Origin: Candidatus Pacearchaeota archaeon | GTDB lineage: Archaea; Nanobdellota; Nanobdellia; Pacearchaeales; GW2011-AR1 | Direction: 5' to 3' | Assembly (NCBI GenBank): GCA_026395815.1 | Contig: JAPLXZ010000010.1 | Span: forward strand, 6,659-70,658 | DNA: 64,000 nt | Shown here: piece after piece, positions 10,802 through 43,584 of the stretch | Position numbering within the stretch: the first letter of the stretch is position 1 | How the letters are laid out: the number at the start of each line of letters is the position of its first letter | Made by a program: the position numbers and the translations under genes | The notes under the pieces: generated by a model | Seen by the model: the letters and a program-made list of their open reading frames with translations, nothing else | Told to the model about the DNA's origin: nothing | Database searches by the model: none

Positions 10802-10804
10802 TTT

Positions 10805-12130
10805 CTATATATGACTTAATCCTCTCTCTCTTAATTTGGTCTGTATTTCAATATAATTATTGACCAATTCTCTTTGTGTGAATCCCTTTCCCCAAGGAGT
10901 TTCATTTTCATATTCAAAAGTCAAGGTTGGGATTTCATTGTCATACCTTCCAAAAAGATGCATGGTCTTGTCCCAATCAGTATTAACATTCTTAATTCCG
11001 AACTTTTTTGGATTACTATAAACTTCTGTTCCTGGCCTTACTGTGAATAATGAGAGATAAACCAAATCTGGCTGTGTTTCTTCTATAAAATCCCAGGTTT
11101 GTTTTACTATGTCCCTTGGTTCTCCAGGCAAACCAAGAATCATATAAGCTCTTGTTTCAATTCCATTTTCTTTTAAAATCTTAAGAGTTCTTCTTGCATC
11201 TTCAACTTGAATTTTTTTGTTTATCATGTCCAATGCTGTTTGAGAAACACTCTCTATTCCTAAACCAAGAGCAATACATCCTGCATCTTTTGCCATCTTT
11301 GCTATTTCAGGAGTGATTCCATCAACTCTTGTCTGCGCTCTCCATACAATTCCTGTGCTTGCTATTGCCTCAAGATAAGAGATGGCCTTTTCTTTGCTAA
11401 AAGGAATGCCAATTTCGTCAAGCATGTTTATTCCTTGAATGTCGTACTCTTTTTTTAAGTATTCAATTTCGTCCTTTATCTTTCCTGGAGAATTATACCT
11501 TGTTCCTTTATCAAACTGTTTCAAATTAGGCATAGCACAAAAAGCGCAATTAAATGGACAGCCTCGGCTAAAAAGGGTTGTTGTTCCCAACAATTCTTCA
11601 TATCCTTTTTTTGATTTTAAAGTCATTAATCCTTTTTTTGCAGTTGCAGATTTAGGAAGGTATTTTCTTCTTGAAAAAGGATATAGACTAATGTCTATTT
11701 TTGATTTCTGCTCATAGACCTTTTTCAAATCAGAATTTTGTAAATCATTTAAAACATCTATAATCGACTCTTCTCCCTCTCCTATAATTAATGAATCAAA
11801 TATCTTTGCAGATTCTTCAGGAAATTCAACGACATGGGGTCCTCCTGCTATATGTTTTGCTTTCGGATAATATTCTCGCAATCCTTTAACTAAAGATTTT
11901 TGTTCATTGTAATCTAGAGTGTAGACAGAATGCAGATATAAATCGCATTCTGGGATATGCTGTATTGCAAATTCTCTTTTTATCCCTCTTAAATCAATCA
12001 GCAAGGGATTTATCTTGTTTCCAAAGTGTTCTTCTAGTTCAGTTAGAATATAAAGTTGTGTATGGGGATCCCCCCTAAAAGGATCTTTAAGATAATCGCT
12101 GCTTGGATTAATGAAGCCAATGTTTAACAT
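10805..12130 (-). CDS. cobalamin-binding-domain radical SAM enzyme (class B type)
   Basis: rSAM cluster SRGCPFNCAFCAMP. N-terminal motifs HIAGGPHVVEFP and IIGEGEESI. Confidence 0.85.
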   Translation of the reverse strand: MLNIGFINPSSDYLKDPFRGDPHTQLYILTELEEHFGNKINPLLIDLRGIKREFAIQHIPECDLYLHSVYTLDYNEQKSLVKGLREYYPKAKHIAGGPHVVEFPEESAKIFDSLIIGEGEESIIDVLNDLQNSDLKKVYEQKSKIDISLYPFSRRKYLPKSATAKKGLMTLKSKKGYEELLGTTTLFSRGCPFNCAFCAMPNLKQFDKGTRYNSPGKIKDEIEYLKKEYDIQGINMLDEIGIPFSKEKAISYLEAIASTGIVWRAQTRVDGITPEIAKMAKDAGCIALGLGIESVSQTALDMINKKIQVEDARRTLKILKENGIETRAYMILGLPGEPRDIVKQTWDFIEETQPDLVYLSLFTVRPGTEVYSNPKKFGIKNVNTDWDKTMHLFGRYDNEIPTLTFEYENETPWGKGFTQRELVNNYIEIQTKLRERGLSHI

Positions 12131-13132: not shown

Positions 13133-13822
13133 TCATTTTCCCCTATATTCTAAAGGACGTCCGTCAATAATCAAATCATCCAAATCTTTCTTTTTATAAG
13201 CATCATAAATCTTTTGAGCAACTTCACGGGGTTCCATTCCATATGTAAATTCTGCAGCTGTTTTTATTCTGGTAGGATATACTTCCATAACTTGGATATT
13301 TCTTGTTTTAGCTTCAATTCTTAAACTGCTTGAAAAGCCCCTTAAACCCCATTTTGAGGCAGAATGGACACTCCTAAACTTTTTTGGTTCCAAACCAACT
13401 ATCGAATTTATATTGATTATAGAGCCATAACCCCTATCTAAAAATAAAGGATATATCCTTCTCGCGAGTTTTATTGGAACAATCAAATTTACCTCTAAAT
13501 TTTCTAAGATATATTCATCATTTAGTTCTTCAATAGGTTTTCCACAGCAGGGTATTGCTGCATTATTTACTAATACAGATATATTTCTCTCTTTTGCTTG
13601 TGAACATAACGCTTCCAGAGTTTCTTCTTTTCTTAGATCTCCTAAAACAGTGTAAACATTTACTCCCCTTTGAACAAGTTCTTCTCCAGTTTTCTTAGTC
13701 TTTTCTTCATTCCTGCCATGAAGTATAATATCATATTTATTTTCTGCAAAAATTTCTGCTATAGCTTTTCCAAGCCCCTTGCTTGATGCAGTTATTAGAA
13801 CACATTCATTGTTTATATGCAT
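13133..13822 (-). CDS. short-chain dehydrogenase/reductase (classical SDR) with an atypical HxxxK site
   Basis: LITASSKGLGKAIA (TGxxxGxG-like), NNAAI and SVHSASKWGL. The start is placed at the ATG 13822 (MHINNECVLITASS), which avoids overlap with the upstream gene. The track ORF extends to 13885. Confidence 0.7.
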   Translation of the reverse strand: MHINNECVLITASSKGLGKAIAEIFAENKYDIILHGRNEEKTKKTGEELVQRGVNVYTVLGDLRKEETLEALCSQAKERNISVLVNNAAIPCCGKPIEELNDEYILENLEVNLIVPIKLARRIYPLFLDRGYGSIININSIVGLEPKKFRSVHSASKWGLRGFSSSLRIEAKTRNIQVMEVYPTRIKTAAEFTYGMEPREVAQKIYDAYKKKDLDDLIIDGRPLEYRGK

Positions 13823-13832
13823 TGATTCACTT

Positions 13833-14810
13833 TCAACTTTTGAAGACATCATATCTATCCCCGGCTGTTTCTTTATTTTCATCATACCATTTTATTGTTT
13901 TTTTTATACCCTCTTCTAAAGAAACACGAGGTTGCCACCCCATTTTTTTTGCCCTTGAAACATCCATAATCCTCTTTTTGTCTCCAGAAGGTTTTGAAGA
14001 ATCCCATATAACTTCTGGAGGATTTTTAACATTTACTAAAATAACATTTACAAGTTCTTTTATAGAATATCCTCTTCCACTTCCCAGATTTACTGGAATT
14101 CCCGGATTTTTTTCAAGAATCATTGCAATTCCTTCTGCTATATCCTCAGTATATACAAAATCTCGAATAGAACTTCCATCGCCCCAAACCATCAGAGGAT
14201 TTTCTCCATCTACAACCCGCTTAATCAATGAAGGCACAACCATTGCATTTACAGAATCAAAATTATCATAAGGGCCATAAGTATTTGCTGGTCGAGCAAT
14301 GTCTATTGTTTTCCAATTAAACTCTATTTTATATGCTTCTGCCTGTAACTCTCCCATTCTTTTTGCCCAGCCGCTAAACCAATCATTTTCTGAAGGCATT
14401 GTTTTCCAAACTTCATCTTCCATAAAGATTTCTGCAGGAGAATAGACTCCAAGAGTGCTTGTATATAGATATCTTTCAACATCTACTTTTTTAGCGGCTC
14501 TAAGAAGATTAGTGTCAAAAAGGATTATGGAATCAAAAAAACTTGCAGGCTTTTCTTTAGTTACCTTAGGATTGCCCTTAACACAAAGGAGATTGAATAC
14601 ATAATCCCTCCCATCGCATACTTTAAGGCAGTTTTCATAATCCCTTAAATCTGCTTTTACAAACTCTGCTTCCGGATTTGCTCTTGAAGAATCATCCAAA
14701 GAAGCGATTCTAATCTGTGCTCCTTCTTTAAGGAGAATATCAACAAGGGATTTACCAATCATTCCTGTTCCCCCTGCTACTAATATCTTTTTGTCAATAT
14801 AAAAACTCAT
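13833..14810 (-). CDS. NAD(P)-dependent sugar epimerase/reductase (GDP-fucose-synthase-like extended SDR)
   Basis: ILVAGGTGMIGKS Rossmann motif, 325 aa, and C-terminal GWQPRVSLEEGIKKTIKWY. Confidence 0.8.
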   Translation of the reverse strand: MSFYIDKKILVAGGTGMIGKSLVDILLKEGAQIRIASLDDSSRANPEAEFVKADLRDYENCLKVCDGRDYVFNLLCVKGNPKVTKEKPASFFDSIILFDTNLLRAAKKVDVERYLYTSTLGVYSPAEIFMEDEVWKTMPSENDWFSGWAKRMGELQAEAYKIEFNWKTIDIARPANTYGPYDNFDSVNAMVVPSLIKRVVDGENPLMVWGDGSSIRDFVYTEDIAEGIAMILEKNPGIPVNLGSGRGYSIKELVNVILVNVKNPPEVIWDSSKPSGDKKRIMDVSRAKKMGWQPRVSLEEGIKKTIKWYDENKETAGDRYDVFKS

Positions 14811-14934: not shown

Positions 14935-16617
14935 ATGATGGTAAAAAAGAATGCCAAAAAAGAAATCAAAATCAAGAAGATATTATTTGCAGAAACCTTA
15001 AATAAATATTATTTTCCTTATCAAAACTACTATCTTCCATTAAAACGATTCTGTAAAAAAATTATCCCCTTTGATATAAAATGGAACTATTATACTTATG
15101 GAAAAGAGGTTATGAATAACAAATTTTTAAAATTGATTGAAAAAGAAAAACCAGATTATGTATTTTTGTTTATAAGAGGTAGTGAATTTTACTTAGATAC
15201 TCTAATAAAAATAAGGAAAGTTTCTCCAAAAACAAAAGTATTTAATTTTTCTGGAGATGAAGATACTGCCTTTGAAATATTTTCAAGGTATCTTATCTTA
15301 TTTGTAGACTATGGATTAGTTTCTCCTGAAAGATATGTTCAACAATATTATAAAGACGGAATAAAAAATGTTTTTTTTATTATTGGTTCAAATAATAATT
15401 TTTTTAAACCGGCAAAATTAGAGAAAAAATATGATGTAACCTTTATAGGCATAGAAAAAGCAGATAGATACGAATTCATAAAGTTTCTTAAGGAAAATGG
15501 AATAAAGATTAATCTTTTTGGATGGGATTGGAGTAGATATCCAAAATTTAAGGATATATACCAGGGAGCACTAGACTCAGAAAAGATGGTGGAAGTTATA
15601 AACCAAAGCAAGATTAATCTGGCTTTCAGCAAATCTAACGACAGAACCCTACATGCCACAGGAAGAATTTATGACTTACTAGCTTGCAAAAGTTTTGTAT
15701 TAACTGAATATTGTAAAGATTATCTCAACCAATTCAAAGAAGGGAAAGATATAATCATGTTTAAGGATAAAGAGGATTTATTAAAAAAAATAAGATATTA
15801 CTTAATAAATGAAAAAGAAAGAGAGAAAATTGCAAATGCAGCATATAAAAAAATTATTAAAAATTATACCATTGATCTAATTTTTAAAAAAATCTTTCAG
15901 AAAATACAAGAAGAAGATAAAAAATTCACCCATAAAGATTTTCCAAAATTAAATAAAAAGATAATTGTTTTCTCTAAAAAAGATTTAGAATTGAATTCAA
16001 AAGAGCTTAAAGAGAAATTAGAGGGTTATGATTACATTGTTCTGTCAAAAGGAAAGTTTCAAAATTTGAAGTATAGGGAATATTTGCAAGCATATTCATT
16101 AGAAAAAACAAAAAAACCTCTAAGTTGCTGTAATTATTATGTTCATTCAAAAATTCTAGGGGATTATATTCGATTCTCTCCAGAAGGTGCACTTAAGGCA
16201 TTAGATAAAAAAAAGTTTTCTTCTCTTTTGAATATAAATCAATTTATGATAACAAAAGAATTCTTTTTAAAAAATATTGAAATTTTCAGAAATATCTTTG
16301 AAAACGGAGAAATAAATTTCATAACTAAAGAAAATACTGCTTTTGTTACTCTCCCATTAATAAGAATTAATAAATTTCCTTCTATGGACTATAAAAGCCT
16401 AAAAAAAGCTTTCACAGAATTTATATTCCTCTATCAATTGTTTTCTTTGAAACAACAAAAGAAGATATTTTCAAGTCTGTATTTATATGCTCTTTTATTC
16501 GAAATAATCAAAGGGAAAAAATTTATCTTAGACGCTATTATAGACACACTAAAAGATAAAGATAAAAAAGAAAAAATAAAAACTTACAAAAAAATGATAA
16601 CTCAAGACCAAAAATGA
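14935..16617 (+). CDS. CgeB-like/GT-B-type glycosyltransferase-family protein with a long C-terminal extension
   Basis: The central block YDVTFIGIEKADRYEFIKFL...INLAFSKSN...ATGRIYDLLACKSFVLTEYCKDYLNQFKEGKDIIMFKDKEDLLKKIRYYLINEKEREKIANAAYKKI resembles the CgeB/DUF3880-type glycosyltransferase C-terminal domain. Residues ~330-560 have no motif I recognise. Confidence 0.55.
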   Translation: MMVKKNAKKEIKIKKILFAETLNKYYFPYQNYYLPLKRFCKKIIPFDIKWNYYTYGKEVMNNKFLKLIEKEKPDYVFLFIRGSEFYLDTLIKIRKVSPKTKVFNFSGDEDTAFEIFSRYLILFVDYGLVSPERYVQQYYKDGIKNVFFIIGSNNNFFKPAKLEKKYDVTFIGIEKADRYEFIKFLKENGIKINLFGWDWSRYPKFKDIYQGALDSEKMVEVINQSKINLAFSKSNDRTLHATGRIYDLLACKSFVLTEYCKDYLNQFKEGKDIIMFKDKEDLLKKIRYYLINEKEREKIANAAYKKIIKNYTIDLIFKKIFQKIQEEDKKFTHKDFPKLNKKIIVFSKKDLELNSKELKEKLEGYDYIVLSKGKFQNLKYREYLQAYSLEKTKKPLSCCNYYVHSKILGDYIRFSPEGALKALDKKKFSSLLNINQFMITKEFFLKNIEIFRNIFENGEINFITKENTAFVTLPLIRINKFPSMDYKSLKKAFTEFIFLYQLFSLKQQKKIFSSLYLYALLFEIIKGKKFILDAIIDTLKDKDKKEKIKTYKKMITQDQK

Positions 16618-17066
16618 AAGATTACCAAGCAGTTGCAGTTTCAATAACAAATAGAAGAAGGGATTTATTTATCTTACAAAAAAAAGATGGAGGTTATTAT
16701 ATACCTCAATTTAGATTTAAGTGCTGTTTCTTTGGAGGGAGAGTAGAAGATGGAGAAGAAGAATATTCTGCATTAAGAAGGGAGTTATTGGAAGAATTAG
16801 ACCAAAAAATTGCAGAGAGAATTTACGAGAAATCCAAGAAGATAGTTCCCGATTACAAAATTATTGATGCATTAGGCAGAAATTGTACTTATTCTTTATA
16901 TGAATCAATATTGTCAACTAGATTATTAAAGAAAATAGCTTCTATGCCTGTTAAAGAAGGAGAAGCAGCTGTTTTAATCAAGAAAGAAGATATATTCAAA
17001 GCCCCATTCTTTTCAGATTTGAGAGAAGTATTAGAAGATTATCTCCTTAGACAAAAACATTCCTAA
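16614..17066 (+). CDS. NUDIX hydrolase
   Basis: Nudix box GGRVEDGEEEYSALRRELLEELD (Gx5Ex7REUxEExGU-like). Confidence 0.75.
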   Translation: MKDYQAVAVSITNRRRDLFILQKKDGGYYIPQFRFKCCFFGGRVEDGEEEYSALRRELLEELDQKIAERIYEKSKKIVPDYKIIDALGRNCTYSLYESILSTRLLKKIASMPVKEGEAAVLIKKEDIFKAPFFSDLREVLEDYLLRQKHS

Positions 17067-17070
17067 TCTT

Positions 17071-17973
17071 TTACTTTTTCTTTAGCAAATTTTTTGTCTT
17101 CTCAACAATTTTCTCAACTTTTGGAGTTCCATTTTCATACCTCTCGTAAGTTCCAGTTGGTCTATCTTCTGCTCCCAATGCTTCAACTCTATAACCTGTT
17201 TGTTTCATTAATTCGTATGCAATTGACTGAGAAGCTCCTGCAATTTCAAAATCAGAATCAATCACTAATCCTAACTTAGATTCCTTTAATGGTTTAATCA
17301 TTCTATCTAGGCTAAGTGGTTTTAGCCATAAGATATGAGAAAGATTACATTTTATATTCTTTTTTTCTAATTCTTTTGCCGCTTCTATCATATTAAATCT
17401 CGAAGCAGAAATTCCATAAAGAGTAATGTCTGCATTAGGAAGAATTATGTCCTCTAACTCTTTTGTTTGGTTAAAACTGTGTCTATGTTCGCTTACATAC
17501 ATAGGACAATCATCTTTCATGAACTCATCCCAAATCTCTTGATATTCTCCAGGAGTCATAGGAGAACATACTTTAATTCCGGGAACATGCATGAAATAAC
17601 TATGTGATATTGCTGAATGAGTTGGACCGGCTCCCTTTCCTTCTGTAGACAAAGCCCTTATGAATATTGGAGTTCCATACCCAAATAAGTATTTTGTTTT
17701 AGCAGCATAATCTACAATAAAACTGGAGTTTAGATTAATAAAGTCCTGAAATCTGATTACAAATATTGGTCTTCTTCCAACTAATGCTGCTCCAGCAACA
17801 ATTCCAGAACCAGCAACATCTATCATAGGTAATTCTATTATATTCTCGCAATCTGGAACAGTGTGGTTTACCCAGCCAACAGCAGTTAAACACTGCCCCA
17901 TTATAAGTCCATTGTTTTCTTCTAAATGTTTTTTTGTTATTTCTTTTATTGTTTCTGCAAGTGTTCTTTCCAT
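17071..17973 (-). CDS. TPP-dependent enzyme, E1 beta/transketolase-like subunit (pyrimidine-binding plus C-terminal domain)
   Basis: ELPMIDVAGSGIVAGAALVGRRPIFVIRFQDFINLNSSFIVDYAAK matches the Pyr-binding domain pattern of E1 beta subunits. The 300 aa length includes a C-terminal transketolase-type domain. Confidence 0.8.
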   Translation of the reverse strand: MERTLAETIKEITKKHLEENNGLIMGQCLTAVGWVNHTVPDCENIIELPMIDVAGSGIVAGAALVGRRPIFVIRFQDFINLNSSFIVDYAAKTKYLFGYGTPIFIRALSTEGKGAGPTHSAISHSYFMHVPGIKVCSPMTPGEYQEIWDEFMKDDCPMYVSEHRHSFNQTKELEDIILPNADITLYGISASRFNMIEAAKELEKKNIKCNLSHILWLKPLSLDRMIKPLKESKLGLVIDSDFEIAGASQSIAYELMKQTGYRVEALGAEDRPTGTYERYENGTPKVEKIVEKTKNLLKKK

Positions 17974-18800
17974 AATTTTTCAACCTCCACCCCATTTAGT
18001 TGTTCTGTCCTGTAAATTTTGTGTTCAAGCCCGTTTTTAATTAATTCCTCTCTAAAGATTTCTAATCTGTCTTTTTCTGGTTTACCATCTTCTCCTGTTC
18101 CTGTATGCCATCTATGTCTGCAAGTTCTGCAATTAAGGAATGCAGGCAGATTATTTCTAAATTCCTTTACATATTCTGCTATCACAAAAGGATCATCAGG
18201 AATATTTGCAGAAGGCATGCCAATAGCTTTTGTTGCATCTGTAAGTTCCCAACTTCTTCTTTCAGATTTTTTTGTTAATATTGAAAGATTATTGTCTTCA
18301 CACACAAAAAAGACAGGAAGCTTGTGAGTAACAGCAAAGCCCATAGCTGTAAAAACATAATCCTCTTCAGCAGCACCATCTCCAAAAACACAAAGAACCT
18401 TCTTAGAAGGATCTCCTAAAGCAGCCCCAACAGCTATAGGAACATTTTCTCCTATAAGCCCATGATGCCCAATCATCCCAATGCCTAAATCTTGTATTCC
18501 TGGAGAGCCTCCTCTTCCCCTGTTACATCCAGAATCTTTTCCTAATAACTCATCAATTAATTTTCCTATGTCTCCCCCATAAGCCAAATAAACTGAATGT
18601 CCTCTGTGTTGTGTGAATATTAAATCTGGCTTGTAGAAAACAGAAAGAGTTGATGATATTGCTTCTTGTCCAATTGAAAGATAAACCGGACATTTTATTT
18701 CTCCTTTATCAACAGCACTCATCACTTGGTTTTCAAACTTTCTGGTATAATCCATCTTTCTGTAAATATCCAAGAATTTTTTTTCATCTATTAAAACCAT
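17946..18800 (-). CDS. TPP-dependent enzyme, E1 alpha-like subunit
   Basis: TPP-binding motif VFGDGAAEEDYVFTAMGFAVTHKLPVFFVCEDNNLSI (GDG...EDNN, E1 type), with upstream SIGQEAISS...HRGH. It overlaps the beta-like gene by 28 nt. Confidence 0.8.
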   Translation of the reverse strand: MVLIDEKKFLDIYRKMDYTRKFENQVMSAVDKGEIKCPVYLSIGQEAISSTLSVFYKPDLIFTQHRGHSVYLAYGGDIGKLIDELLGKDSGCNRGRGGSPGIQDLGIGMIGHHGLIGENVPIAVGAALGDPSKKVLCVFGDGAAEEDYVFTAMGFAVTHKLPVFFVCEDNNLSILTKKSERRSWELTDATKAIGMPSANIPDDPFVIAEYVKEFRNNLPAFLNCRTCRHRWHTGTGEDGKPEKDRLEIFREELIKNGLEHKIYRTEQLNGVEVEKLWKEHLQKQ

Positions 18801-18854
18801 TTTTTTATTATATAAAACTGCCTTTTAAATTTTGTTGCAATAGACTAATAAATT

Positions 18855-20018
18855 CTATGGGAAGTCAACGCACATCGGGTCTTTTTCTCTAGTTTCCATT
18901 GCTAATTCTTCAATCTGCCTTGCATATTCTCCATAAGTGCATCTGCTACATTCTCTATCAGGATTAATTGACTTTAGATAATCTCTGTGTTTATCGCTTC
19001 CCCACATCTTTAGAATCTCTTTTGGGTCTGGATAATGACTGCATAATTTGAATCTCGGATCTACCTTGTGATCGATGCATGAATAAACATTTCCATCAGA
19101 ACATACTTGTATTACTAATGAAGAAGAAACACAATTTTTGAAAGTGTGCACAACTCTAAATTCAGGATCATATTTGTGCATTACAGTAAAAACTCTGAAT
19201 CCATCATTCTCTTCTAATTCATGACACTTTCTGAATAAATTTTGTATTTCATCTATCTTGTAGTTAACTGTCATAGCCGGCTCGAAATCCTTTCTCTCTA
19301 AATCAGCAGGACGAGCATGAAAATCTCTTACTCCTATTTCTTTTGCAAGCTCACAAGCCTTATATATCTCATGCCAATTTGTAGGAGTAATCAGGAATTT
19401 ATATGCAATATCTATTTTTGAATTTGTTCTTTCTTTTGTTTTTACTAATAATCTTAAATTTCTGATTACCTTATCAAAATAATCAACATCATGTACTTCT
19501 TTAAAAGTTTCACGAGTTCCAGCATCTACAGAAACCCCTATCCATCTGCAATTCATCATTTCTTCTGCAATCTTTTCATTTATCAAACTGCCGTTTGTTA
19601 TAACAGAACTTTTCATTCCTTTTGAAGCGATATAAGAAGGAAGAGTCCACGCATTTTTGTTCATCAAAGGCTCTCCACCACCACCAAGGCAGACTCCTCT
19701 AACACCCCAATCAGCGCAAAAATCAAGCAGTTTTTCTAAATGTTCTTTTGTCATTAATTTCTTGTCTGCAGGAACTTCATCAGGATTTATTGTAAGATAC
19801 CTTTGAGCATTGCAATGTTTGCATTTAAAATTGCACAAATGCGATGGGTCTAATGCCATCTCAATTGGAGGAGGAAGATCTTTTCTTTTTCCTTGAAACC
19901 ATTCTGCGATTGGAACATAATGACTATCAAACAAAATTAGTCCTTTGGAAGAATTAAAAGAATTATATCTGCTTTTATCACTCCATTCTATTCCTATTGG
20001 TTTATGGTCGTCCCTCAT
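18855..20018 (-). CDS. radical SAM enzyme with a C-terminal Cys-rich (SPASM/twitch-like) region
   Basis: Cluster motif SHLCNFKCKHCNA, GGGGEPLM, and C-terminal cysteines VCSDGNVYSCIDH...CSH...CSRCTYGEY. Confidence 0.8.
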   Translation of the reverse strand: MRDDHKPIGIEWSDKSRYNSFNSSKGLILFDSHYVPIAEWFQGKRKDLPPPIEMALDPSHLCNFKCKHCNAQRYLTINPDEVPADKKLMTKEHLEKLLDFCADWGVRGVCLGGGGEPLMNKNAWTLPSYIASKGMKSSVITNGSLINEKIAEEMMNCRWIGVSVDAGTRETFKEVHDVDYFDKVIRNLRLLVKTKERTNSKIDIAYKFLITPTNWHEIYKACELAKEIGVRDFHARPADLERKDFEPAMTVNYKIDEIQNLFRKCHELEENDGFRVFTVMHKYDPEFRVVHTFKNCVSSSLVIQVCSDGNVYSCIDHKVDPRFKLCSHYPDPKEILKMWGSDKHRDYLKSINPDRECSRCTYGEYARQIEELAMETREKDPMCVDFP

Positions 20019-20178
20019 TTTGTATAACCTTCAAGACAGAAAATGATATTTAAATTTTTTGTAGGTGGAATATATACTATAATTAATTTAATAGAAATTG
20101 GAAGCACTAAATAAATATTCTGCAATCTGTATATTAAGACTACACAAAACTTATATACTATTTTGAAGAAAAAATTTG

Positions 20179-21156
20179 ATGGTTAAGAGTTTAATAACTG
20201 GTATTGGTGGATTTGTAGCGAGTCATTTAGCAGATTTACTTCTTGACAGAAAAGAGGAAGTACATGGAACATACAGATGGGCAGAAGATTTGAATAAAAT
20301 AGATCATGTAAGAGAAAAAATAAACCTTGTTCCATGTGATTTATTGGATGTTAGTGCATGTGTAAGGGCAATTAGAGACTCTAAGCCGGATTATATTTTT
20401 CATTTAGCAGCTCAAAGTTATGTTAGCGACAGTTATGATAATCCAATAATAACAGTCCAGGCAAATACAATTGGAACAGTAGATTTGCTTGAAGCGATTA
20501 GAATTGTAAAACAAGAGGATTCAACTTACAATCCTGTAGTTCATGTATGCAGCACTTCAGAAGTTTATGGGCTTGTGAAAAAAGAAGACTTGCCGATTAA
20601 AGAAACTCAGGCACTTAATCCAGGAAATCCTTATGCTGTAGGAAAACTTGGAGGAGATATGGCTTCATTAGTCTATTGGACTAATTTTGGAATAAAAACA
20701 ATAAGAACAAGAGCATTCACTCATACAGGACCAAGAAGAACAATGATGTCTGCAGAATGTAATTTTGCAAAACAAATCGCTTTGATTGAAAAAGGAAAAC
20801 AAAAACCTATAATCCATCACGGAAACCTCGATAGTGTGAGAACCTGGACAGATGTTAGAGATATGGCTGAGGCATATTATCTTCTTGTGAGAAAATGCAA
20901 ACCAGGAGAAGTATATAATATCGGTGGGGATACTACAAAAACTATTGGTGAAATGTTGGATTATCTTATCTCATTGAGTCCCATGAAAGAAACGATAAAA
21001 AAATTCCAGGATCCAAAACTAATGCGGCCCTATGATGTTTCTTTGCAAATTCCAGACTGTTCAAAATTCAAAAAAGAAACAGGCTGGGAACCAAAAATCA
21101 CATTTGAAAAAACAATGCAGGATTTATTGAACTGGTGGAGACAAACAGCAGATTAG
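20179..21156 (+). CDS. NDP-sugar dehydratase/reductase (extended SDR, Gmd/Rmd-like)
   Basis: ITGIGGFVASHLADLLL Rossmann motif and the catalytic PYAVGKLGG (YxxxK). The track ORF starts at TTG 20176, and the ATG at 20179 is the likelier start. Confidence 0.8.
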   Translation: MVKSLITGIGGFVASHLADLLLDRKEEVHGTYRWAEDLNKIDHVREKINLVPCDLLDVSACVRAIRDSKPDYIFHLAAQSYVSDSYDNPIITVQANTIGTVDLLEAIRIVKQEDSTYNPVVHVCSTSEVYGLVKKEDLPIKETQALNPGNPYAVGKLGGDMASLVYWTNFGIKTIRTRAFTHTGPRRTMMSAECNFAKQIALIEKGKQKPIIHHGNLDSVRTWTDVRDMAEAYYLLVRKCKPGEVYNIGGDTTKTIGEMLDYLISLSPMKETIKKFQDPKLMRPYDVSLQIPDCSKFKKETGWEPKITFEKTMQDLLNWWRQTAD

Positions 21157-21210
21157 ATATTTTACAATTTTATAATTTACATAAATTTTTTTGTGAGAAT
21201 AATCCACAGA

Positions 21211-21921
21211 ATGTTTAAGCTTTTTATTAATACAGGAGGGTTAGGAAAAAGACTTTATTCTTTAACAAAGGATATTCCAAAGCCAATGATAATAGTAAAA
21301 GGAAAGCCCATGCTTCATCATCTTGTTGATTGGGCCAAGAAGTATGATGTTTCAGAGATAGTTATGATGAATGGGTATAAAGCAGAAAAGATTATTGAAT
21401 ACTTTAGGAATGGAGAAAATTTTGGAATAGCAATAAAACATTCAAACGAACCATATCCATTAGGAAGCGGAGGTCCATTAAGATATGCGAGAAATAATAT
21501 TACAGGGACCTTTGCCTATATGTCTGGAGATTTAATTTGTGAAGTCGATTTAAAAGAGATGTATAATATTCATACAAAAAATAATGCAGATATGACTGTC
21601 ACTTTGCATAAATCTTCTCATCCCGAGGATTCAGATATTCTTCAGGTTGATGAAAATAATCAAATAATAAGATTTGTTTCAAAACACGAGAATCATGATA
21701 ATGTCGGAGATTTGGGAAATGCTGGCTTATGCATAATGGAACCGAAAATTATAAAGTTGATGGAAGAAGAGGTTTTCAATTTTGAAAATTACCTATACCC
21801 AAGAGTACTAAATGCAAAACTAAAAATGATGGGATATATTACTGAAGAGCGAATCAAAGATATTGGGACATCAGAAAGATTAAGAGAAATTGAAGAATCT
21901 GATTTTGGAGTTGTGAAATGA
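21211..21921 (+). CDS. sugar-1-phosphate nucleotidylyltransferase (HddC/mannose-1-P guanylyltransferase-like)
   Basis: MFKLFINTGGLGKRLYSLTKDIPKPMIIV (GxGxRL signature), plus GSGGPL and SGDLICEVD. The track ORF begins at GTG 21193. The ATG 21211 places the Gly loop at the usual distance from the N-terminus. Confidence 0.8.
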   Translation: MFKLFINTGGLGKRLYSLTKDIPKPMIIVKGKPMLHHLVDWAKKYDVSEIVMMNGYKAEKIIEYFRNGENFGIAIKHSNEPYPLGSGGPLRYARNNITGTFAYMSGDLICEVDLKEMYNIHTKNNADMTVTLHKSSHPEDSDILQVDENNQIIRFVSKHENHDNVGDLGNAGLCIMEPKIIKLMEEEVFNFENYLYPRVLNAKLKMMGYITEERIKDIGTSERLREIEESDFGVVK

Positions 21922-22937
21922 AATTTTATGGAAAAAGTCCTGTTAGAATTAGTTTATGTAACGGAGGAGATACAGATTATTATGTAAATGCACTTGGCTG
22001 GACAAATCTTATAAATGCTACCCTGAGTTCTGGAACTTATTTTTGTGAAATAGAAAAAAAAGAGCAAAGTTTTATAGATTATTCTTACAAAAACAATTTC
22101 CTAAAAAAAGAGATTCATAAGAAGATTACAGATTTGGAGAATAAAGAAGAAGATTTAAGTTTAATCACTGAAACAGTAAAAGAAATAGCCCCCTCATTCA
22201 AAGGGAATATAAAAATAATAACTAATGTTCCAGAAAAGAGTGGATTAGGTGGCTCTTCTTCTTTAGTTGTTTCTTTAATAAAAGCATTGATTAAATCAAC
22301 AAATGCCAAAAATGTTACTCCAGAGCAAATAGCGTGGTTAGCTTATAAAATAGAAAGGATAAGTGCAGGAATTAAAGGAGGATATCAAGATCAGTGGGCC
22401 GCAGCTTTTTCAGGAGGAGTTAATTATCTTGAATTTAGAAAGAATAAAGTGTTCATAGAACCTCTATGGCTTTCTGAAAAATTAATGAAAAAACTTGAAG
22501 ATAATCTTATCCTTTTTTTTATAGAACCAAGAAAAGGAGATAGCGGAAATATACACAGAGAGATGGAGAATAAGATAAAAAACAAAAAAAAGGAAGATAT
22601 GAAAACAATGTTAGAAAAAAGGGGAAACGTAACTAAAACCAGAGAAGCTTTGTTAAAAGGAGATATAAAGAAATTTTCAGAATTGCTTGATACAGAACAT
22701 AAAAATAAATTAAAGTTAGTTAAAAATTTACTGAGTCCAAAAATAAAGAACATTTATTCTGCAGCATTAGCTAATGGAGCAACAACCGGAAAAATAAGCG
22801 GGGCTGGCTCAGGAGGATGTGTATTTTTTATATACGAACAAAAAGACAAAATATTTTTTATAAAAAAAATGAATGATTTAGGGTGTATATATCTCCCTCT
22901 TAAATTACAAAGGCTCAATTCTATGGGAGAAATCTGA
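21918..22937 (+). CDS. GHMP-family sugar kinase (HddA-like sugar-phosphate/anomeric kinase)
   Basis: The N-terminus SPVRISLCNGGDTDYY is of the HddA/fucokinase type. GLGGSSSLVVSLIKAL is the GHMP motif, and ISGAGSGGCVFF is also present. It has a 4-nt start/stop overlap with the nucleotidyltransferase. Confidence 0.8.
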   Translation: MKFYGKSPVRISLCNGGDTDYYVNALGWTNLINATLSSGTYFCEIEKKEQSFIDYSYKNNFLKKEIHKKITDLENKEEDLSLITETVKEIAPSFKGNIKIITNVPEKSGLGGSSSLVVSLIKALIKSTNAKNVTPEQIAWLAYKIERISAGIKGGYQDQWAAAFSGGVNYLEFRKNKVFIEPLWLSEKLMKKLEDNLILFFIEPRKGDSGNIHREMENKIKNKKKEDMKTMLEKRGNVTKTREALLKGDIKKFSELLDTEHKNKLKLVKNLLSPKIKNIYSAALANGATTGKISGAGSGGCVFFIYEQKDKIFFIKKMNDLGCIYLPLKLQRLNSMGEI

Positions 22938-23800
22938 TGATATCAATTGTTCTTAGTTCTTTTCACACCTCAAAATTATTGAAAAAAGCTATTGATGCTG
23001 TTCTGGGAAATAAAATCAAAGAAAAATATGAACTGGTTGTAATAGATTCTGATAAAAACATAAGAGAAATAATAAAACAATCAGACAAAAAATACAGCAA
23101 GATAAAATTTTTTGATGATAAAGGAAAAGGGAAAAGTTATTCGTTGAATCTTATATTTAAAATGCTGAAAGGAGATATCTGGATTTTCAGTGAGGGAGAT
23201 TCTTTCATAGCTAACAACTCTATAAATGAAATAATTGAATCATTCAGGGACGAGTCTGTTGGATGTGTTTCAGGAAGGCCGATCTCATTAAATTCAAGGA
23301 AGAAAATACTGGGCTATTGGTCGCACCTGTTGTTTGATGCAGCCCATAAAATAAGAAAAGAATTGGATGCTAAAGAATTATTTTTAGAATGTTCTGGTTA
23401 TTTATTTGCTTTTAGAGATAATATCACGAAAAATATCCCCCTAAATGTCGCAGATGATTCTATAATTCCATATTTAGTTACAAAAAAAGGTTATAAAGTA
23501 AAATATGCAGAAAAAGCAGTTGTTTATGTAGGAAATCCTCAAGAGATTAGAACTTTCATAAATCAAAAAGTAGATGCTGCAAAGGCACATGAAGCACTTG
23601 AAGACTATGCTCCTTTTTTTCCAAAAGTTAAATCATTTACTAATGAAGTAAAAAAAGGAACTTTTTTGGCCCTTGCTTATCCTAAAAATGCAAAAGAATT
23701 TTCTTGGACAATCTTACTATTTTTTACCCGGCTCTATATATGGATAAAAGTAAAGTGGGAAGAGAAAATTATTAAGAAGAAAAGGAAAGGTTTTCTTTAG
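22937..23800 (+). CDS. family 2 glycosyltransferase
   Basis: MISIVLSSFHTSKLLKKAIDAVL...YELVVIDSD and SEGDSFI (DxD-like). Paralog of the partial gene at 63357. It has an ATGA start/stop overlap with the upstream kinase. Confidence 0.7.
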   Translation: MISIVLSSFHTSKLLKKAIDAVLGNKIKEKYELVVIDSDKNIREIIKQSDKKYSKIKFFDDKGKGKSYSLNLIFKMLKGDIWIFSEGDSFIANNSINEIIESFRDESVGCVSGRPISLNSRKKILGYWSHLLFDAAHKIRKELDAKELFLECSGYLFAFRDNITKNIPLNVADDSIIPYLVTKKGYKVKYAEKAVVYVGNPQEIRTFINQKVDAAKAHEALEDYAPFFPKVKSFTNEVKKGTFLALAYPKNAKEFSWTILLFFTRLYIWIKVKWEEKIIKKKRKGFL

Positions 23801-24953
23801 TTTTTACAACTGAATCATAAAATTTTTCCAAATCAAAAATTAATTTTCTATTCAATGAAAAATTCTTTTGAGCTTTTTTTATGTCTCTTCTCATATTTTT
23901 ATAGTCTTTTTTTAATAAAATTTCCCTAATCCTGTCTAAATCTTCATAATTTATACTAAATCCAATATTATTTTCTTTGATTATTTTAGACATAAATTCA
24001 CTTTGCTTAAAACAGATTGTAGGAATTCCCGCCTCTATATAATCAAAAAGTCGATTGCCCATAGCTGTCTTTAAATGCAGAGGATTCATTATATCTATAA
24101 AATGATAATCCAGAATAATTCCATAATCATATCTACTTATTTCTTTCTTTAATTTATCAACATTTAATCTTTCATGAAAGTGGAAATATTTATTATTTTT
24201 TTCCTCATTACAATAAATTTCATTCTCTTTTTCGTCCTGACATCTTCCATAAACATGGACATGTATTTTTTGCGAGGTTATCTTTCTTATTGTTTTTATA
24301 AAAGGGACATGAAAAATTGTATCTCTTGGAGGATATGCAGCATGAACAAGGTGGATATTTGTTTTTTTAACCTCTCTTTTAAGGTTTATATTCTGATTCC
24401 ATTCATCTAAACACCCTGGTAGCAAGGCCAAATCAGGAACTCTTACCTTATATTTCAGCAGATTAAGTTCATCCTTAGGTCCCTTGTGTAAAATCCCATC
24501 TGTTTTTCCAAAACCTATTCTTTCAAAAAATTCCTGAAAAGATTCTTTTATTCCTAAGTCCTTAATAGAAAATTTTCTCCCGTAAAATCCCCAGATGTCA
24601 TATGCAAAATATATTTTTGGCCTTTTTTTTGTTATGTGCATGAAGATTAGTGTAAAGAAATCAGGTCCAGTTATTTGAAATAAATAAGGATTCAGTTTTC
24701 TTATGCTTTTGATGAATTCCTTTCCTTCTCTGCTAGATAATTTTTTTAGGATAAGGAGCATATTTTTTGGATTGATTTTATGGCTCAATTCAAATATAAA
24801 AAATTTATCAAAAACATCCTTATATTTTTCTTTGTCAACTTTTGAAAAAGAAACCAATACTGTTTCATAATTTCCTGTAGCTTTCAAAACTTTTGCTATC
24901 TTTACATTAATCATATTAGGAACATATTCAACAAAAACAATCTGTTTTTTCAT
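23772..24953 (-). CDS. uncharacterised GT-B-like glycosyltransferase-family protein
   Basis: 393 aa. The C-terminal GNRLFDYIEAGIPTICFK resembles a GT-B nucleotide-sugar-binding helix. It is a clear paralog of 52575..53825 (shared N-terminus KKQIVFxE...). I cannot name the family. Confidence 0.5.
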   Translation of the reverse strand: MKKQIVFVEYVPNMINVKIAKVLKATGNYETVLVSFSKVDKEKYKDVFDKFFIFELSHKINPKNMLLILKKLSSREGKEFIKSIRKLNPYLFQITGPDFFTLIFMHITKKRPKIYFAYDIWGFYGRKFSIKDLGIKESFQEFFERIGFGKTDGILHKGPKDELNLLKYKVRVPDLALLPGCLDEWNQNINLKREVKKTNIHLVHAAYPPRDTIFHVPFIKTIRKITSQKIHVHVYGRCQDEKENEIYCNEEKNNKYFHFHERLNVDKLKKEISRYDYGIILDYHFIDIMNPLHLKTAMGNRLFDYIEAGIPTICFKQSEFMSKIIKENNIGFSINYEDLDRIREILLKKDYKNMRRDIKKAQKNFSLNRKLIFDLEKFYDSVVKTKENLSFSS

Positions 24954-25112: not shown

Positions 25113-25874
25113 ATGTCAGAATTTAATCTATTAGAATCCGCAGGATTGCCCCAAAAAAAGAAAAGAGACAGAGAAGGAGTTATAACTCAAGAAGATAGAG
25201 AAATTGCAGGAAAACTTGCTTTTGATTTCTATGATGGAGATAGGAGATATGGCTATGGCGGATACATTTATGATGGAAGATGGAAAAAGGTTGCAGAATC
25301 GGCAAAAGAAAGATATAAACTAAATCCAAATTCAAAAGTTTTAATTGACAGATGCCATAAAGGGTTTTTAGTTCATGATTTAAAACAATTAATTCCAGAA
25401 ATTACAGTTTATGGAATGCATCCAAAGGAATATGCAATAAATCATGCAATGGAAGGATTTGGAAGATGGTTCCTGCTTAATTCTAAAGAAAGAAATGAGG
25501 ATCCAAGAATAGATATTGACCCAAGATTAATTGAAGAAAAAGCAAGAGATGAAACATCGCCTTTTTTGATTCAGGCTGATTCAAGAGAAATGCCTTTTGG
25601 TGATAATTATTTTGATTGTGTAATTTCCATAGAGAACGCATGCTCCTTTCCAGAAGAAGAATGCAGGCAGATTGTAAGAGAAATAGTAAGAGTAAGCAAA
25701 CTTTCTTCTCATCATTGCTACATCCAGAATGACTCATGGGAAAATGAAGAACAGAAAAAGAAACTATTGAACTGGAGCAAACTATGCAAAACATTCCTGG
25801 ATATGGATCAATGGAAAAAACTTTATGAAGAGGAGTATTATCATGGAGATTTCGGATTCACAATCATCGAATAG
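25113..25874 (+). CDS. class I methyltransferase-fold protein with degenerate SAM-binding motifs
   Basis: It is homologous to 42052..42708 over its full length (FDGDRRYGYGGYIYDGRW vs FDGERKHGYGGYNYHPRFW). However, motif I reads LIDRCHKGFLV instead of LDVGCGKGFML. The start is placed at the ATG 25113 (MSEFNLLES); the track ORF starts at TTG 25050. Confidence 0.65.
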   Translation: MSEFNLLESAGLPQKKKRDREGVITQEDREIAGKLAFDFYDGDRRYGYGGYIYDGRWKKVAESAKERYKLNPNSKVLIDRCHKGFLVHDLKQLIPEITVYGMHPKEYAINHAMEGFGRWFLLNSKERNEDPRIDIDPRLIEEKARDETSPFLIQADSREMPFGDNYFDCVISIENACSFPEEECRQIVREIVRVSKLSSHHCYIQNDSWENEEQKKKLLNWSKLCKTFLDMDQWKKLYEEEYYHGDFGFTIIE

Positions 25875-28510: not shown

Positions 28511-28545
28511 ATAAATTTAAGAACAATTTTAAATAAAACACTAAA

Positions 28546-35041: not shown

Positions 35042-35090
35042 GAATAATCTTCCCTTTAAATTTGATTATATTCCATATATCTTATATGCT

Positions 35091-35098
35091 TATAAATA
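35091..35098 (+). promoter_or_regulatory. TATA-like box for the first tandem rSAM gene
   Basis: tataaata begins 26 nt upstream of the ATG 35117. A C8 tract (35100..35107) and a T7 tract (35110..35116) follow it. Confidence 0.45.
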
Positions 35099-35099
35099 T

Positions 35100-35107
35100 C
35101 CCCCCCC
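35100..35107. repeat. poly-C (8 nt) homopolymer between TATA-like box and start codon
   Basis: Read directly: tataaatat-cccccccc-tg-ttttttt-ATG. Confidence 0.95.
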
Positions 35108-35116
35108 TGTTTTTTT

Positions 35117-36703: not shown

Positions 36704-36726
36704 TCATAGATTTTTATCATTATATT

Positions 36727-36734
36727 TATAAATA
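36727..36734 (+). promoter_or_regulatory. TATA-like box for the second tandem rSAM gene
   Basis: tataaata begins 27 nt upstream of the ATG 36754, the same spacing as for copy 1. Confidence 0.45.
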
Positions 36735-36753
36735 TTTATCTATCCTCATTTTT

Positions 36754-43577: not shown

Positions 43578-43584
43578 TTTAATT

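Follow-up and report, generated by a model that had tools for sequence, protein, structure and literature searches.

Two sets of radical SAM and E1-like genes

The 64,000-nucleotide stretch of contig JAPLXZ010000010.1 from a Candidatus Pacearchaeota archaeon that we analyzed (the window) carries two sets of genes that combine a radical S-adenosylmethionine (SAM) enzyme, a split thiamine diphosphate (ThDP) enzyme resembling the alpha and beta subunits of pyruvate dehydrogenase (PDH) E1, and a NUDIX hydrolase. The first set (copy 1) encodes on the minus strand the twitch-type radical SAM enzyme rSAM1 (18855–20018; Pfam Radical_SAM, 2.8e-19), followed by the E1alpha-like ThDP subunit A1, a 284-amino acid (aa) protein with the PP domain and a GDGA...CEDN motif (17946–18800; E1_dh, 1.8e-23), and by the 300-aa E1beta-like subunit B1 (17071–17973; Transket_pyr, 2e-15, with a weak Transketolase_C match, 7e-8). 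The A1 and B1 genes overlap by 28 nt, and a gap of 54 nt, which is AT-rich and contains a TATA-like string when read by eye, separates rSAM1 from A1. The NUDIX gene N1 (16614–17066, plus strand; NUDIX, 1.4e-7) does abut the set on the opposite strand, as described in the first-pass annotation of this DNA: it converges on B1 with a 4-nt gap. At its other end, N1 overlaps by 4 nt a gene for a 560-aa glycosyltransferase-like protein of the Glyco_trans_1_2 family (CgeB-like; 14935–16617, plus strand; 4.1e-26). The Nudix box of N1, GRVEDGEEEYSALRRELLEELD, has one deviation (the last G is replaced by D).

The second set (copy 2) is also on the minus strand and begins with rSAM2, a radical SAM/SPASM protein with the N-terminal pre-motif YHPDRVAEW (40534–41589; Radical_SAM, 3.1e-18; SPASM, 9e-11). 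It continues with A2, a minimal E1alpha-like protein of 214 aa that consists of the PP domain only (39893–40537; E1_dh, 1.2e-16; a weak DXP_synthase_N match, 1.1e-6), and B2, a minimal E1beta-like protein of 174 aa with only the Pyr domain (39369–39893; Transket_pyr, 5.7e-12; no Transketolase_C). An FkbM-family methyltransferase gene follows (38380–39396, minus strand; 3.8e-20). The overlaps of starts and stops through rSAM2/A2 (4 nt), A2/B2 (1 nt) and B2/FkbM (28 nt) point to co-expression and translational coupling of the four genes. The NUDIX gene N2 (41650–42048, plus strand; 1.8e-14) diverges from rSAM2 and encodes a Nudix box, GHVEGNETPTEALKRELREEIG, that matches the consensus GX5EX7REUXEEXGU perfectly. 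Neither N1 nor N2 reached any of the curated cut-offs for NUDIX equivalogs. All eight open reading frames (ORFs) named in the first-pass annotation are present with the coordinates and strands it gave, and Pfam confirmed each of its domain calls.

The two sets had been described as copies of one recurrent module. The four gene types indeed occur twice, but the sets are old, divergent paralogues rather than repeats, with identities of 27% between rSAM1 and rSAM2, 33% between A1 and A2, 25% between B1 and B2, and 36% over 36 aa between N1 and N2. Their architectures also differ, as A1 exceeds A2 by 70 aa and the C-terminal domain of B1 is missing from B2. These identities and architectures rule out a recent duplication of a four-gene module.

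The closest named families and solved structures for both pairs are the E1 alpha and beta subunits of PDH and of branched-chain 2-oxoacid dehydrogenase (BCKDH). However, the scores of all four subunits fall 3- to 6-fold under curated cut-offs: A1 and A2 reached 139.6 and 80.1 bits, respectively, with TIGR03182 (E1alpha; cut-off 393.85), and B1 and B2 reached 85.2 and 64.3 bits with NF006667 (E1beta; cut-off 321). Solved E1alpha chains are 365–410 aa long versus 284 aa in A1 and 214 aa in A2, and the alignment of A1 to human PDH E1alpha is restricted to residues 9–177. A2 ends soon past its PP domain, and B2 consists of nothing but the Pyr domain. The alignments show that the Mg-ThDP motif is kept in both families (GDGAAEEDY...CEDN in that of A1 and GDGAEDEGH...EDNN in that of A2), and the glutamate region of B2 (TPVAE) is retained and aligns with TPLNE of structure 1ik6. 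A profile of A2 found human PDH E1alpha as its nearest solved structure (1.6e-15) and matched 1-deoxy-D-xylulose-5-phosphate synthase (DXS) and transketolase structures at 6e-5. No E2, E3 or lipoyl families were detected in the scanned ORFs of the window or in ten related loci annotated with Pfam; furthermore, the E3 redox-disulfide motif was absent from the 10,867 ORFs of the fetched loci, in which lipoyl-like pentapeptides occurred only at chance levels. Judged by their sequences, A1/B1 and A2/B2 are E2-independent ThDP enzymes derived from 2-oxoacid dehydrogenase E1.

Both E1-like pairs are surrounded by genes with Pfam matches to short-chain dehydrogenases/reductases (SDR), including one similar to GDP-mannose 4,6-dehydratase (GMD), and to nucleotidyltransferases, GHMP kinases, glycosyltransferases and a flippase. 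Next to copy 1 and divergent from rSAM1, a GMD-like SDR gene (20176–21156; GDP_Man_Dehyd, 1.2e-72) precedes genes for a nucleotidyltransferase (21193–21921; NTP_transferase, 6.8e-22) and a GHMP sugar kinase (21918–22937; GHMP_kinases_N and _C), all on the plus strand. Together, the three genes (20176–22937) are candidate suppliers of a nucleoside diphosphate (NDP)-4-keto sugar. The window thus offers, besides other SDR genes, both a 4,6-dehydratase-like gene and ketoreductase candidates of the adh_short family. One of the latter lies near copy 1 (13133–13885, minus strand; 2e-40) and is related to the FabG-like reductase of a cyanophage sugar island discussed below; the other is at 46469–47293 (minus strand). 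The missed E1 cut-offs and the lack of E2 and E3 genes in the window and related loci bear out the earlier suggestion of E2-less E1-like enzymes in a nucleotide-sugar setting.

A radical SAM and minimal-E1 cassette in archaea, bacteria and phages

The rSAM2-A2-B2(-FkbM) genes belong to a conserved cassette of a radical SAM enzyme and a minimal E1 pair that is shared by archaea, bacteria and phages. A2 has 1114 homologues at high identity. We collected ten cellular A2/B2 loci: the window, L008, L010, L013, L014, L015, L018, L102 (Phycisphaerae), L103 (Pacearchaeota) and L104 (Omnitrophica). Besides these three groups, Woesearchaeota and Nanoarchaeota are represented, and all ten loci have a gene for a twitch/SPASM radical SAM enzyme within 2.5 kb of the pair (directly adjacent in six). 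Orthologues of rSAM2 with 51–61% identity are beside or near the A2/B2 genes of L015, L102, L008 and L010, and L015 reproduces the order rSAM2-A2-B2 at 61%, 66% and 51% identity.

Viral contigs in IMG/VR hold more than 547 relatives of A2. Among the best 80 of these loci, with partners counted within 3 kb, 51 have a radical SAM gene, and 44 of the 80 have it in the order beta-rSAM-alpha, on one strand and with stops that overlap the following starts. Searches from the radical SAM side found the pair within 3 kb in 78 of 80 viral loci and in all 11 clusters at 80% identity, the two exceptions being cut by contig ends; here, E1a-E1b-rSAM is a second frequent order. Thus, genes of the copy-2 type passed the co-localization test that had been set beforehand: they were linked from whichever side the search began, in archaea and bacteria as well as in phages. 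The A1/B1-type loci provided an internal control, as just 4 of 47 have a twitch radical SAM gene within 10 kb.

The IMG/VR loci carry the handles L105–L259. We verified phage status only for the L123/L134 and L199 contig types, for one 735-kb uncultured phage and for two cyanophages. The L134/L123 cassette sits between the genes for the major head protein and the tape-measure protein, in the order head protein, a 593-aa double glycosyltransferase with two family 2 (GT2) domains, a 254-aa ORF, beta, radical SAM and alpha (L134, 4709–14720). In L199 (1286–7871), the cassette comes after the RecE, RecT and RusA genes and ahead of a glycosyltransferase-like gene, and in the 735-kb phage the radical SAM gene adjoins the alpha gene. 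Both the alpha and the beta part have matches in PHROG 34187, which is listed as ‘unknown function’. Minimal phage cassettes, composed of the trio and a glycosyltransferase, have no kinase and no nucleotidyltransferase. BLAST comparisons among the small flanking ORFs, which are mostly without a Pfam family, found no universal fourth cassette gene, and some of these ORFs are shared (between L116, L153 and gp195 of cyanophage S-SM2, and between L105 and S-SM2 gp199). Close A2-type genes were not found on plasmids of cultured bacteria, where the search recovered only distant canonical E1 genes (at most 36% identity).

Several neighbors of the cassette support a sugar substrate. For example, a GMD-like SDR gene lies inside the L153 cassette, which is directly followed by a gene that fuses an FkbM domain to a GT2 domain. 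TylC3-type sugar C-methyltransferase domains flank the L116 cassette, and a gene for the heptose kinase/adenylyltransferase RfaE is located between radical SAM genes upstream of the L103 pair. FkbM-type labels in L105 and L116 are weak (18–26 bits) and 2.4–4.0 kb from the cassette. In one large group of phage contigs, the position of the cassette between head and tail genes and beside a glycosyltransferase suggests glycosylation of the virion or the host surface with an unusual sugar.

Three radical SAM enzymes of the window (rSAM1, rSAM2 and a further protein, rSAM4) form one subfamily with those of the phage and bacterial cassettes. The first-pass annotation had pointed to a subfamily with an N-terminal pre-motif, and this subfamily, with the pre-motif HP(D/E)..W..G, is real; its members also have in common a C-terminal H.NF motif and four invariant C-terminal cysteines. 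In rSAM1, the CX3CX2C motif corresponds to C62, C66 and C69, and the additional cysteines (C296, C314, C357 and C360) are invariant in 16 diverse subfamily members. Four such cysteines fit one auxiliary [4Fe-4S] cluster, as in radical SAM dehydrogenases. The Pfam SPASM domain was found in rSAM2, rSAM4 and another window protein, rSAM3, and was not detected in rSAM1. The AlphaFold model of rSAM1 (pLDDT 90.6) gave DesII (E-value, 4.7e-15; TM-score, 0.63–0.67) and BlsE (E-value, 7.4e-13; TM-score, 0.63/0.73) as the best Foldseek matches; peptide-modifying SPASM enzymes, MoaA and viperin ranked lower. Scores with the curated families were under the cut-offs: rSAM2 reached 45.2 of 450 bits with TIGR04426 (DesII), and matches to TIGR04466 (BlsE) were 34.3 and 47.6 of 400. 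Viperin- or MoaA-like nucleotide chemistry is less favored, with structural and sequence matches weaker than those to DesII and BlsE. We also rejected a thiamine-thiazole logic (DXS plus ThiH), because no ThiH-family match was found and the context is glycan synthesis throughout.

The rSAM4 gene (48625–49713, plus strand) was missed in the first pass. It follows a class I/II aminotransferase gene (47378–49713 for the two, both on the plus strand) and its product matches rSAM1 and rSAM2 with E-values of 7e-33 and 1e-35, respectively. Among the window proteins, rSAM4 is the closest to the phage-cassette radical SAM enzymes (260–350 bits). An aminotransferase gene is also directly upstream of the rSAM2 orthologues in L010 (2466–4612) and L015 (5106–7548). 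As a separate observation, inteins (Hint/Intein_splicing) interrupt the region near the cluster-binding site in a phage cassette radical SAM protein (L107, 7145–9268) and in the rSAM1 homologue P0043.

In 25 of the 80 viral loci, alpha and beta are fused in one chain of ~395 aa. The same fusion occurs in the T4-like cyanophages P-TIM68 and S-SM2, where it is annotated as ‘transketolase central region-containing protein’ and has 52–56% identity to the alpha part. The cyanophage genes lie in sugar islands (P-TIM68, L185 160722–175279; S-SM2, L186 142451–157008) amid genes for a zinc-dependent alcohol dehydrogenase (Zn-ADH), a FabG-like reductase, a sugar kinase, an RfaE-type adenylyltransferase domain, epimerases and glycosyltransferases; GmhA is annotated in P-TIM68 only. 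These two cyanophages are apparently the only cultured carriers, and they have the fused form without a radical SAM gene. Within 3 kb, 51 of the 80 viral loci have a radical SAM gene and no Zn-ADH, 28 have a Zn-ADH and no radical SAM gene, one has neither and none has both. After dereplication at 80% identity, 8 clusters have the radical SAM gene and 17 have the Zn-ADH, with no mixed cluster (Fisher p = 9e-7). Both cassette versions share accessory ORFs. On a crude neighbor-joining tree of the alpha domain without support values, loci with one partner are intermixed with loci that have the other (for example, L110 with L116, L178 in a radical SAM group and L177 beside a Zn-ADH group), which suggests several switches between radical SAM and Zn-ADH. 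The simplest interpretation of this alternation is a single function, provided to the ThDP enzyme by either a radical SAM enzyme or a Zn-ADH.

Copy 1 and the surrounding glycan island

Neighborhoods of the copy-1 genes in other genomes have a different composition. The A1 family has 1890 homologues, and a metagenome scan recovered 290 relatives. We took a census of 47 A1-type loci with at least 8 kb of flanking DNA, in which genes were counted within 10 kb and labeled by BLAST or phmmer similarity to window proteins, so that the counts may miss some divergent NUDIX or radical SAM genes. An E1beta gene was present in 45 of these loci, SDR genes in 43, B12-binding (cobalamin) radical SAM genes in 39 and a GHMP kinase in 27. 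DJ-1/PfpI (24/47), class I/II aminotransferase (22/47), acetohydroxyacid synthase (AHAS)-like ThDP enzymes (20/47), nucleotidyltransferase (17/47) and NUDIX (10/47) genes were less frequent. The genes are typically arranged as NTP-transferase, GHMP kinase, SDR, (aminotransferase), E1a, E1b, DJ-1, AHAS, SDR, SDR and two B12-radical SAM genes. All of these partners are in the window but dispersed; for example, DJ-1, AHAS and two B12-radical SAM genes are at 31981–38355. The copy-1 triad did not hold up as a conserved unit: a twitch radical SAM gene was within 10 kb in only 4 of the 47 loci (within 3 kb in 1/47), versus 39 for B12-radical SAM genes.

The 14 distinct loci with rSAM1 orthologues (60–74% identity, in DPANN archaea and one Paceibacterota genome) had none with an A1-type partner. 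Their most constant neighbor within 10 kb is a homologue of the 560-aa glycosyltransferase-like gene (10/14; 39–55% identity), and a B12-radical SAM gene usually adjoins the orthologue. Ten of the 14 also have a ThDP enzyme within 10 kb, which is of the A2/B2 type in six, a transketolase-like split pair in two and AHAS-like in two. Thus, the usual partners of A1/B1 are B12-radical SAM, SDR, GHMP kinase, aminotransferase and DJ-1/AHAS-like genes, and those of rSAM1 are the glycosyltransferase-like gene, B12-radical SAM genes, sometimes a NUDIX gene and a ThDP enzyme of varying type. Copy 1 is best read as a local juxtaposition of two modules, one with the glycosyltransferase-like gene and rSAM1 and the other with A1/B1 and N1. 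Viral contigs contain only 3 relatives of the rSAM1 type and 1–2 of the A1 type.

The NUDIX genes, once counted as part of the module, are better described as a recurrent accessory outside the core cassette. Besides the 10 of 47 A1-type loci, an N2-type gene is directly upstream of the rSAM1 orthologue in 3 of the 14 loci (L010, L013 and L017) and another is in the L015 operon; none was seen in the viral cassettes, where labels again depended on similarity to window proteins. The convergent arrangement of copy 1 (E1a> E1b> NUDIX<) recurs in L030, L031 and L033, with NUDIX proteins 37–39% identical to N1. The encoded enzymes plausibly act as NDP-sugar hydrolases and might, as the first-pass annotation suggested, edit or recycle the pool of nucleotide sugars.

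It is possible, though somewhat short of an even bet, that the adjacency of rSAM1 and A1/B1 in copy 1 has no functional meaning and is a by-product of gene packing in a shuffled island whose modules serve different steps or different sugars. In favor of this explanation, radical SAM enzymes account for ~15 of the ~53 genes of the window, which also has four loci of ThDP enzymes. The rarity of twitch radical SAM genes near A1/B1-type pairs, the partnership of rSAM1 orthologues with every ThDP type seen except A1, and the 54-nt AT-rich gap with its TATA-like string point the same way. However, the ThDP enzymes in 10 of the 14 rSAM1 loci suggest that rSAM1 needs one, a need that A1/B1 may serve here. 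Furthermore, in one other locus (L078) a gene resembling rSAM1 comes after a pair of the A1/B1 type. Both window pairs are flanked by a twitch radical SAM gene, and with four such genes among ~53 the probability of this arrangement by chance is 0.005 (on one given side) to 0.02 (on either side).

DJ-1 and AHAS genes are the commonest immediate neighbors of A1/B1-type pairs in metagenomes (L024–L101) and form with them a conserved cassette with two ThDP enzymes. In the window, DJ-1/PfpI (31981–32520) and an 851-aa AHAS-like enzyme (32486–35041) precede two tandem B12-radical SAM paralogues (35117–36703 and 36754–38355), all on the plus strand. The AHAS-like protein has a 250-aa N-terminal extension with a weak cupin match. 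Some A1-type pairs have the appearance of a phosphonate pathway (ThDP decarboxylase, iron-dependent alcohol dehydrogenase, B12-radical SAM and nucleotidyltransferase); we ruled this out, as no phosphoenolpyruvate mutase was found and the ThDP enzyme is of the E1 type and not of the phosphonopyruvate decarboxylase type. A third kind of split ThDP enzyme, comprised of a Transketolase_N protein of ~257–284 aa and a Transket_pyr/Transketolase_C protein of ~309–323 aa, occurs with B12-radical SAM genes in L001 (9754–11520), L003 (12238–14002) and L104 (7324–9047). The sources are a Paceibacterota genome, an uncultured (Logan) contig that also encodes a homologue of rSAM1, and a glycan locus of Omnitrophica.

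The bulk of the window (29–35% G+C) is a ~60-kb surface-glycan biosynthesis island of this DPANN archaeon, with Pfam matches to glycan-synthesis families in almost all genes from ~4.9 kb to the end. Other contents are SDR epimerases/dehydratases, two GHMP-kinase/nucleotidyltransferase pairs, methyltransferases, glycosyltransferases and one flippase. An archaeal RNA polymerase subunit N gene lies at 185–535, and both A1 (to P0121) and A2 show 100% identity to Candidatus Pacearchaeota proteins. Genes for SecF and SecD (1996–4423, plus strand) flank the island, and they are likewise found at 13528–16105 of L103, the Pacearchaeota contig with an A2/B2 cassette; this suggests that the placement of the island is conserved. 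The ThDP enzymes of the island are A1/B1, A2/B2 and two AHAS-like proteins, and its ~15 radical SAM enzymes comprise ten with B12-binding domains, one HemN-like and four of the twitch/SPASM type (Pfam). The B12-binding genes are at 9389–12130 (two genes on the minus strand, ~5 kb from copy 1), 25825–30567, 35117–38355, 49719–52578 and 61931–63301, and the HemN-like gene is at 30554–31948. Ten B12-radical SAM genes and a HemN-like gene in 64 kb are unusually dense for a small-genome DPANN archaeon and presumably imply cobalamin import.

We also identified a third pairing of radical SAM and ThDP genes, overlooked in the first pass, on the same strand as the copy-2 cassette (43585–46428). It consists of rSAM3 (SPASM; 43585–44634, minus strand) and a 597-aa YerE/AHAS-like enzyme (44635–46428, minus strand), with no nucleotides between them; the adh_short reductase gene at 46469–47293 is located upstream after a gap of 40 nt. 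The same stretch upstream of copy 2 (42052–47293, minus strand) includes genes for a SAM methyltransferase and an SDR epimerase. Two adjacent ORFs of 1075 and 1055 aa (55171–61583, plus strand) are candidates for secreted or surface proteins, which the enzymes of the island might glycosylate; one has a Laminin_G_3 domain and its neighbor has FG-GAP/Big_7 domains. Two ORFs of ~400 aa on the minus strand (23772–24953 and 52575–53825) have no Pfam family; at least one of them has homologues near rSAM1 or rSAM2 orthologues in L010, L013, L015, L016 and L017.

Proposed sugar branching and its relation to known systems

We propose, with a probability of about one half, that the radical SAM enzyme supplies a keto-sugar to which the ThDP enzyme adds a two-carbon branch. 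Both pairs are probably ThDP carboligases that act on activated sugars, most likely an NDP-heptose or an NDP-6-deoxyhexose. The GHMP kinase and nucleotidyltransferase would activate the sugar, and SDR enzymes would prepare it. The twitch-type radical SAM enzyme, with its DesII/BlsE-like fold and one auxiliary [4Fe-4S] site, would then generate a ring or side-chain carbonyl without NAD, either by radical dehydrogenation as in BtrN or by a DesII-type elimination after transamination. Next, an alpha2beta2 ThDP enzyme may decarboxylate pyruvate and add the two-carbon acyl-anion equivalent to the carbonyl, and the predicted product is a C-acetyl- or hydroxyethyl-branched sugar. Reduction by an SDR, O- or C-methylation (FkbM-type and B12-radical SAM enzymes) and glycosyl transfer could follow.

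The alternation of radical SAM and Zn-ADH genes, the DesII/BlsE fold and the auxiliary-cluster cysteines all point to the carbonyl-forming role. In BtrN and other radical SAM dehydrogenases, a secondary alcohol is oxidized to a ketone without NAD by means of an auxiliary [4Fe-4S] cluster (PMC2996862). Furthermore, two-carbon branching of a sugar followed by a ketoreductase step has precedents in AviB1/AviB2, Pau11/Pau12 and YerE (PMC4753412).

Several points weigh against this proposal. The substrate, the two-carbon donor and the product are guesses, and we infer the order of the steps. Twitch radical SAM enzymes that act on sugars also include epimerases and dehydratases. The alternation, traced on a tree without support values, could reflect two cassette versions with different products. 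Fused alpha-beta forms occur without a radical SAM gene, and the homologues listed contain no fusion of rSAM with E1, which argues that the ThDP enzyme does not intrinsically require the radical SAM partner. The adjacency of rSAM1 and A1 is essentially unique to this genome, with L078 as the sole partial parallel. Two further observations fit a sugar-phosphate substrate: fused viral forms adjoin a carbohydrate kinase gene in 18 of 25 loci, and A2 has its weak DXP_synthase_N match.

The latter observations feature in the main rival to this mechanism, an unlikely alternative in which the ThDP enzyme would extend the chain of a sugar phosphate. A DXS- or transketolase-like reaction on a free aldose or ketose phosphate would precede nucleotide activation, for example in a sedoheptulose/heptose pathway, and yield a 1-deoxy-ketose or a sugar longer by two carbons, the oxidation state of which the radical SAM enzyme or the Zn-ADH would adjust. 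Viral relatives match DXP_synthase_N as A2 does (1.1e-6 to 2.8e-7), DXS structures are among the profile matches, and the cyanophages have GmhA and RfaE-type genes besides the kinases. The GHMP kinase and nucleotidyltransferase would permit activation after the carbon skeleton is built, and the NUDIX enzymes could free sugar phosphates from NDP-sugars. However, E1 matches are far stronger than those to DXS and transketolase (1.6e-15 versus 6e-5) and the radical SAM model has its nearest structural counterparts among enzymes that use nucleotide-linked sugars. Genes similar to 4,6-dehydratases and NDP-hexose C-methyltransferases lie in or beside the cassette, and the minimal phage cassettes do without kinase and nucleotidyltransferase.

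We regard a partnership at the protein level as very unlikely. In one version, the radical SAM enzyme would mature the ThDP enzyme; in others, the two would exchange electrons as in pyruvate:ferredoxin oxidoreductase or a substrate radical would couple to the ThDP enamine. The phage radical SAM gene is indeed sandwiched between beta and alpha with overlapping stops and starts, the top NCBIfam match is a ‘maturase’ family (TIGR04317, far under its cut-off) and the auxiliary-cluster cysteines are present. Yet the alternative order alpha-beta-rSAM is just as common, the nearest folds are small-molecule sugar enzymes, and listed homologues include no rSAM-E1 fusion. The fused alpha-beta forms that lack a radical SAM gene have a Zn-ADH instead, which fits a small-molecule redox role. 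Equally improbable is a single catalytic unit, in which the ThDP enamine would catch the sugar radical or pyruvate oxidation would feed the electron of the radical SAM cluster. If true, it would be a machine that forms carbon–carbon bonds independently of NAD and flavodoxin, with which phages would build an unusual branched sugar on the virion or host surface. Least credible is an ordinary pyruvate or acetoin dehydrogenase E1 with E2 and E3 encoded elsewhere: PDH and BCKDH E1 subunits are the best named families and structures, but both subunits are truncated and score far under the cut-offs, no locus examined has E2 or E3 genes, and the pairs are always in glycan or phage structural contexts and present in phages and DPANN archaea.

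E1-like pairs have been proposed to branch sugars in antibiotic pathways for ~20 years and are still poorly characterized. The 214 + 174 aa version is very small, highly conserved and abundant, and its fixed partner with a Zn-ADH substitute offers an experimental handle. In DPANN archaea and candidate-phyla bacteria, two groups with a barely known cell-surface chemistry, the cassette is part of surface-glycan islands. Hundreds of phage contigs carry it as well, and its place between head and tail genes and next to a glycosyltransferase in one large group suggests that virions or hosts bear a sugar not yet described; a function could then be assigned to PHROG 34187. There is also a lesson for the use of gene context, as two look-alike triads in one window are, respectively, a conserved cassette and a local juxtaposition.

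In the literature library that we searched, we found nothing relevant on a characterized radical SAM and ThDP sugar system. The closest precedents for the pairs are AviB1/AviB2 of avilamycin and Pau11/Pau12 of paulomycin, likewise split PDH-E1-like pairs without E2 in deoxysugar pathways (PMC4753412). Their activity is itself only proposed, as the transfer of a C-acetyl branch from pyruvate onto a keto-sugar with a ketoreductase acting next (PMC4753412). The window similarly has SDR and adh_short genes nearby; none of the four proteins appears by name among the homologues listed. Unlike them, A2 and B2 are much smaller (214 and 174 aa), the pairs are coupled to twitch (A2/B2) or B12-radical SAM genes (A1/B1), and the systems are surface-glycan systems of archaea, phages and uncultured bacteria. 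YerE of the yersiniose pathway, an AHAS-like ThDP flavoenzyme, attaches a two-carbon branch to an NDP-4-keto sugar (PMC4753412), and the window also encodes two AHAS-like enzymes. However, YerE has its N, M and C domains in one polypeptide, an architecture that is not homologous to the A/B pairs. The 2-oxoacid dehydrogenase E1, DXS and transketolase enzymes have in common with our pairs the PP and Pyr domains, the GDG...(E/D)N motif and the Pyr glutamate region; here, in contrast, E2 and E3 are missing, alpha is truncated beyond its PP domain, the C-terminal domain is absent from B2 and scores are far under the cut-offs.

Among radical SAM enzymes, DesII (dTDP-4-amino-4,6-dideoxy-D-glucose ammonia-lyase) and BlsE (cytosylglucuronate decarboxylase) act on nucleotide-linked sugars, and DesII yields a keto-sugar. 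The pairs of aminotransferase and radical SAM genes in the window, L010 and L015 echo DesI/DesII and permit a DesI/DesII-like route to a keto-deoxy sugar. Identity to DesII and BlsE is only 14–20%, however, and the present family has its own N-terminal pre-motif and four-cysteine C-terminal site. BtrN catalyzes the oxidation of an alcohol to a ketone with a twitch domain (PMC2996862), but it is not among the sequence or structure matches listed here. The present radical SAM family may have a comparable dehydrogenase activity. In related aminoglycoside pathways, the step of BtrN is carried out by an NAD-dependent Zn-ADH, which parallels the alternation of radical SAM and Zn-ADH genes in the viral cassettes. 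The P-TIM68 and S-SM2 proteins of PHROG 34187 are the A2+B2 family in fused form, with Zn-ADH, FabG-like reductase and sugar kinase genes, and not a radical SAM gene, as neighbors. Thus, the parts are of known kinds, and the novelty lies in the minimal E1 architecture, in the twitch radical SAM enzyme as its fixed partner, in the alternative use of a Zn-ADH and in the distribution in phages.

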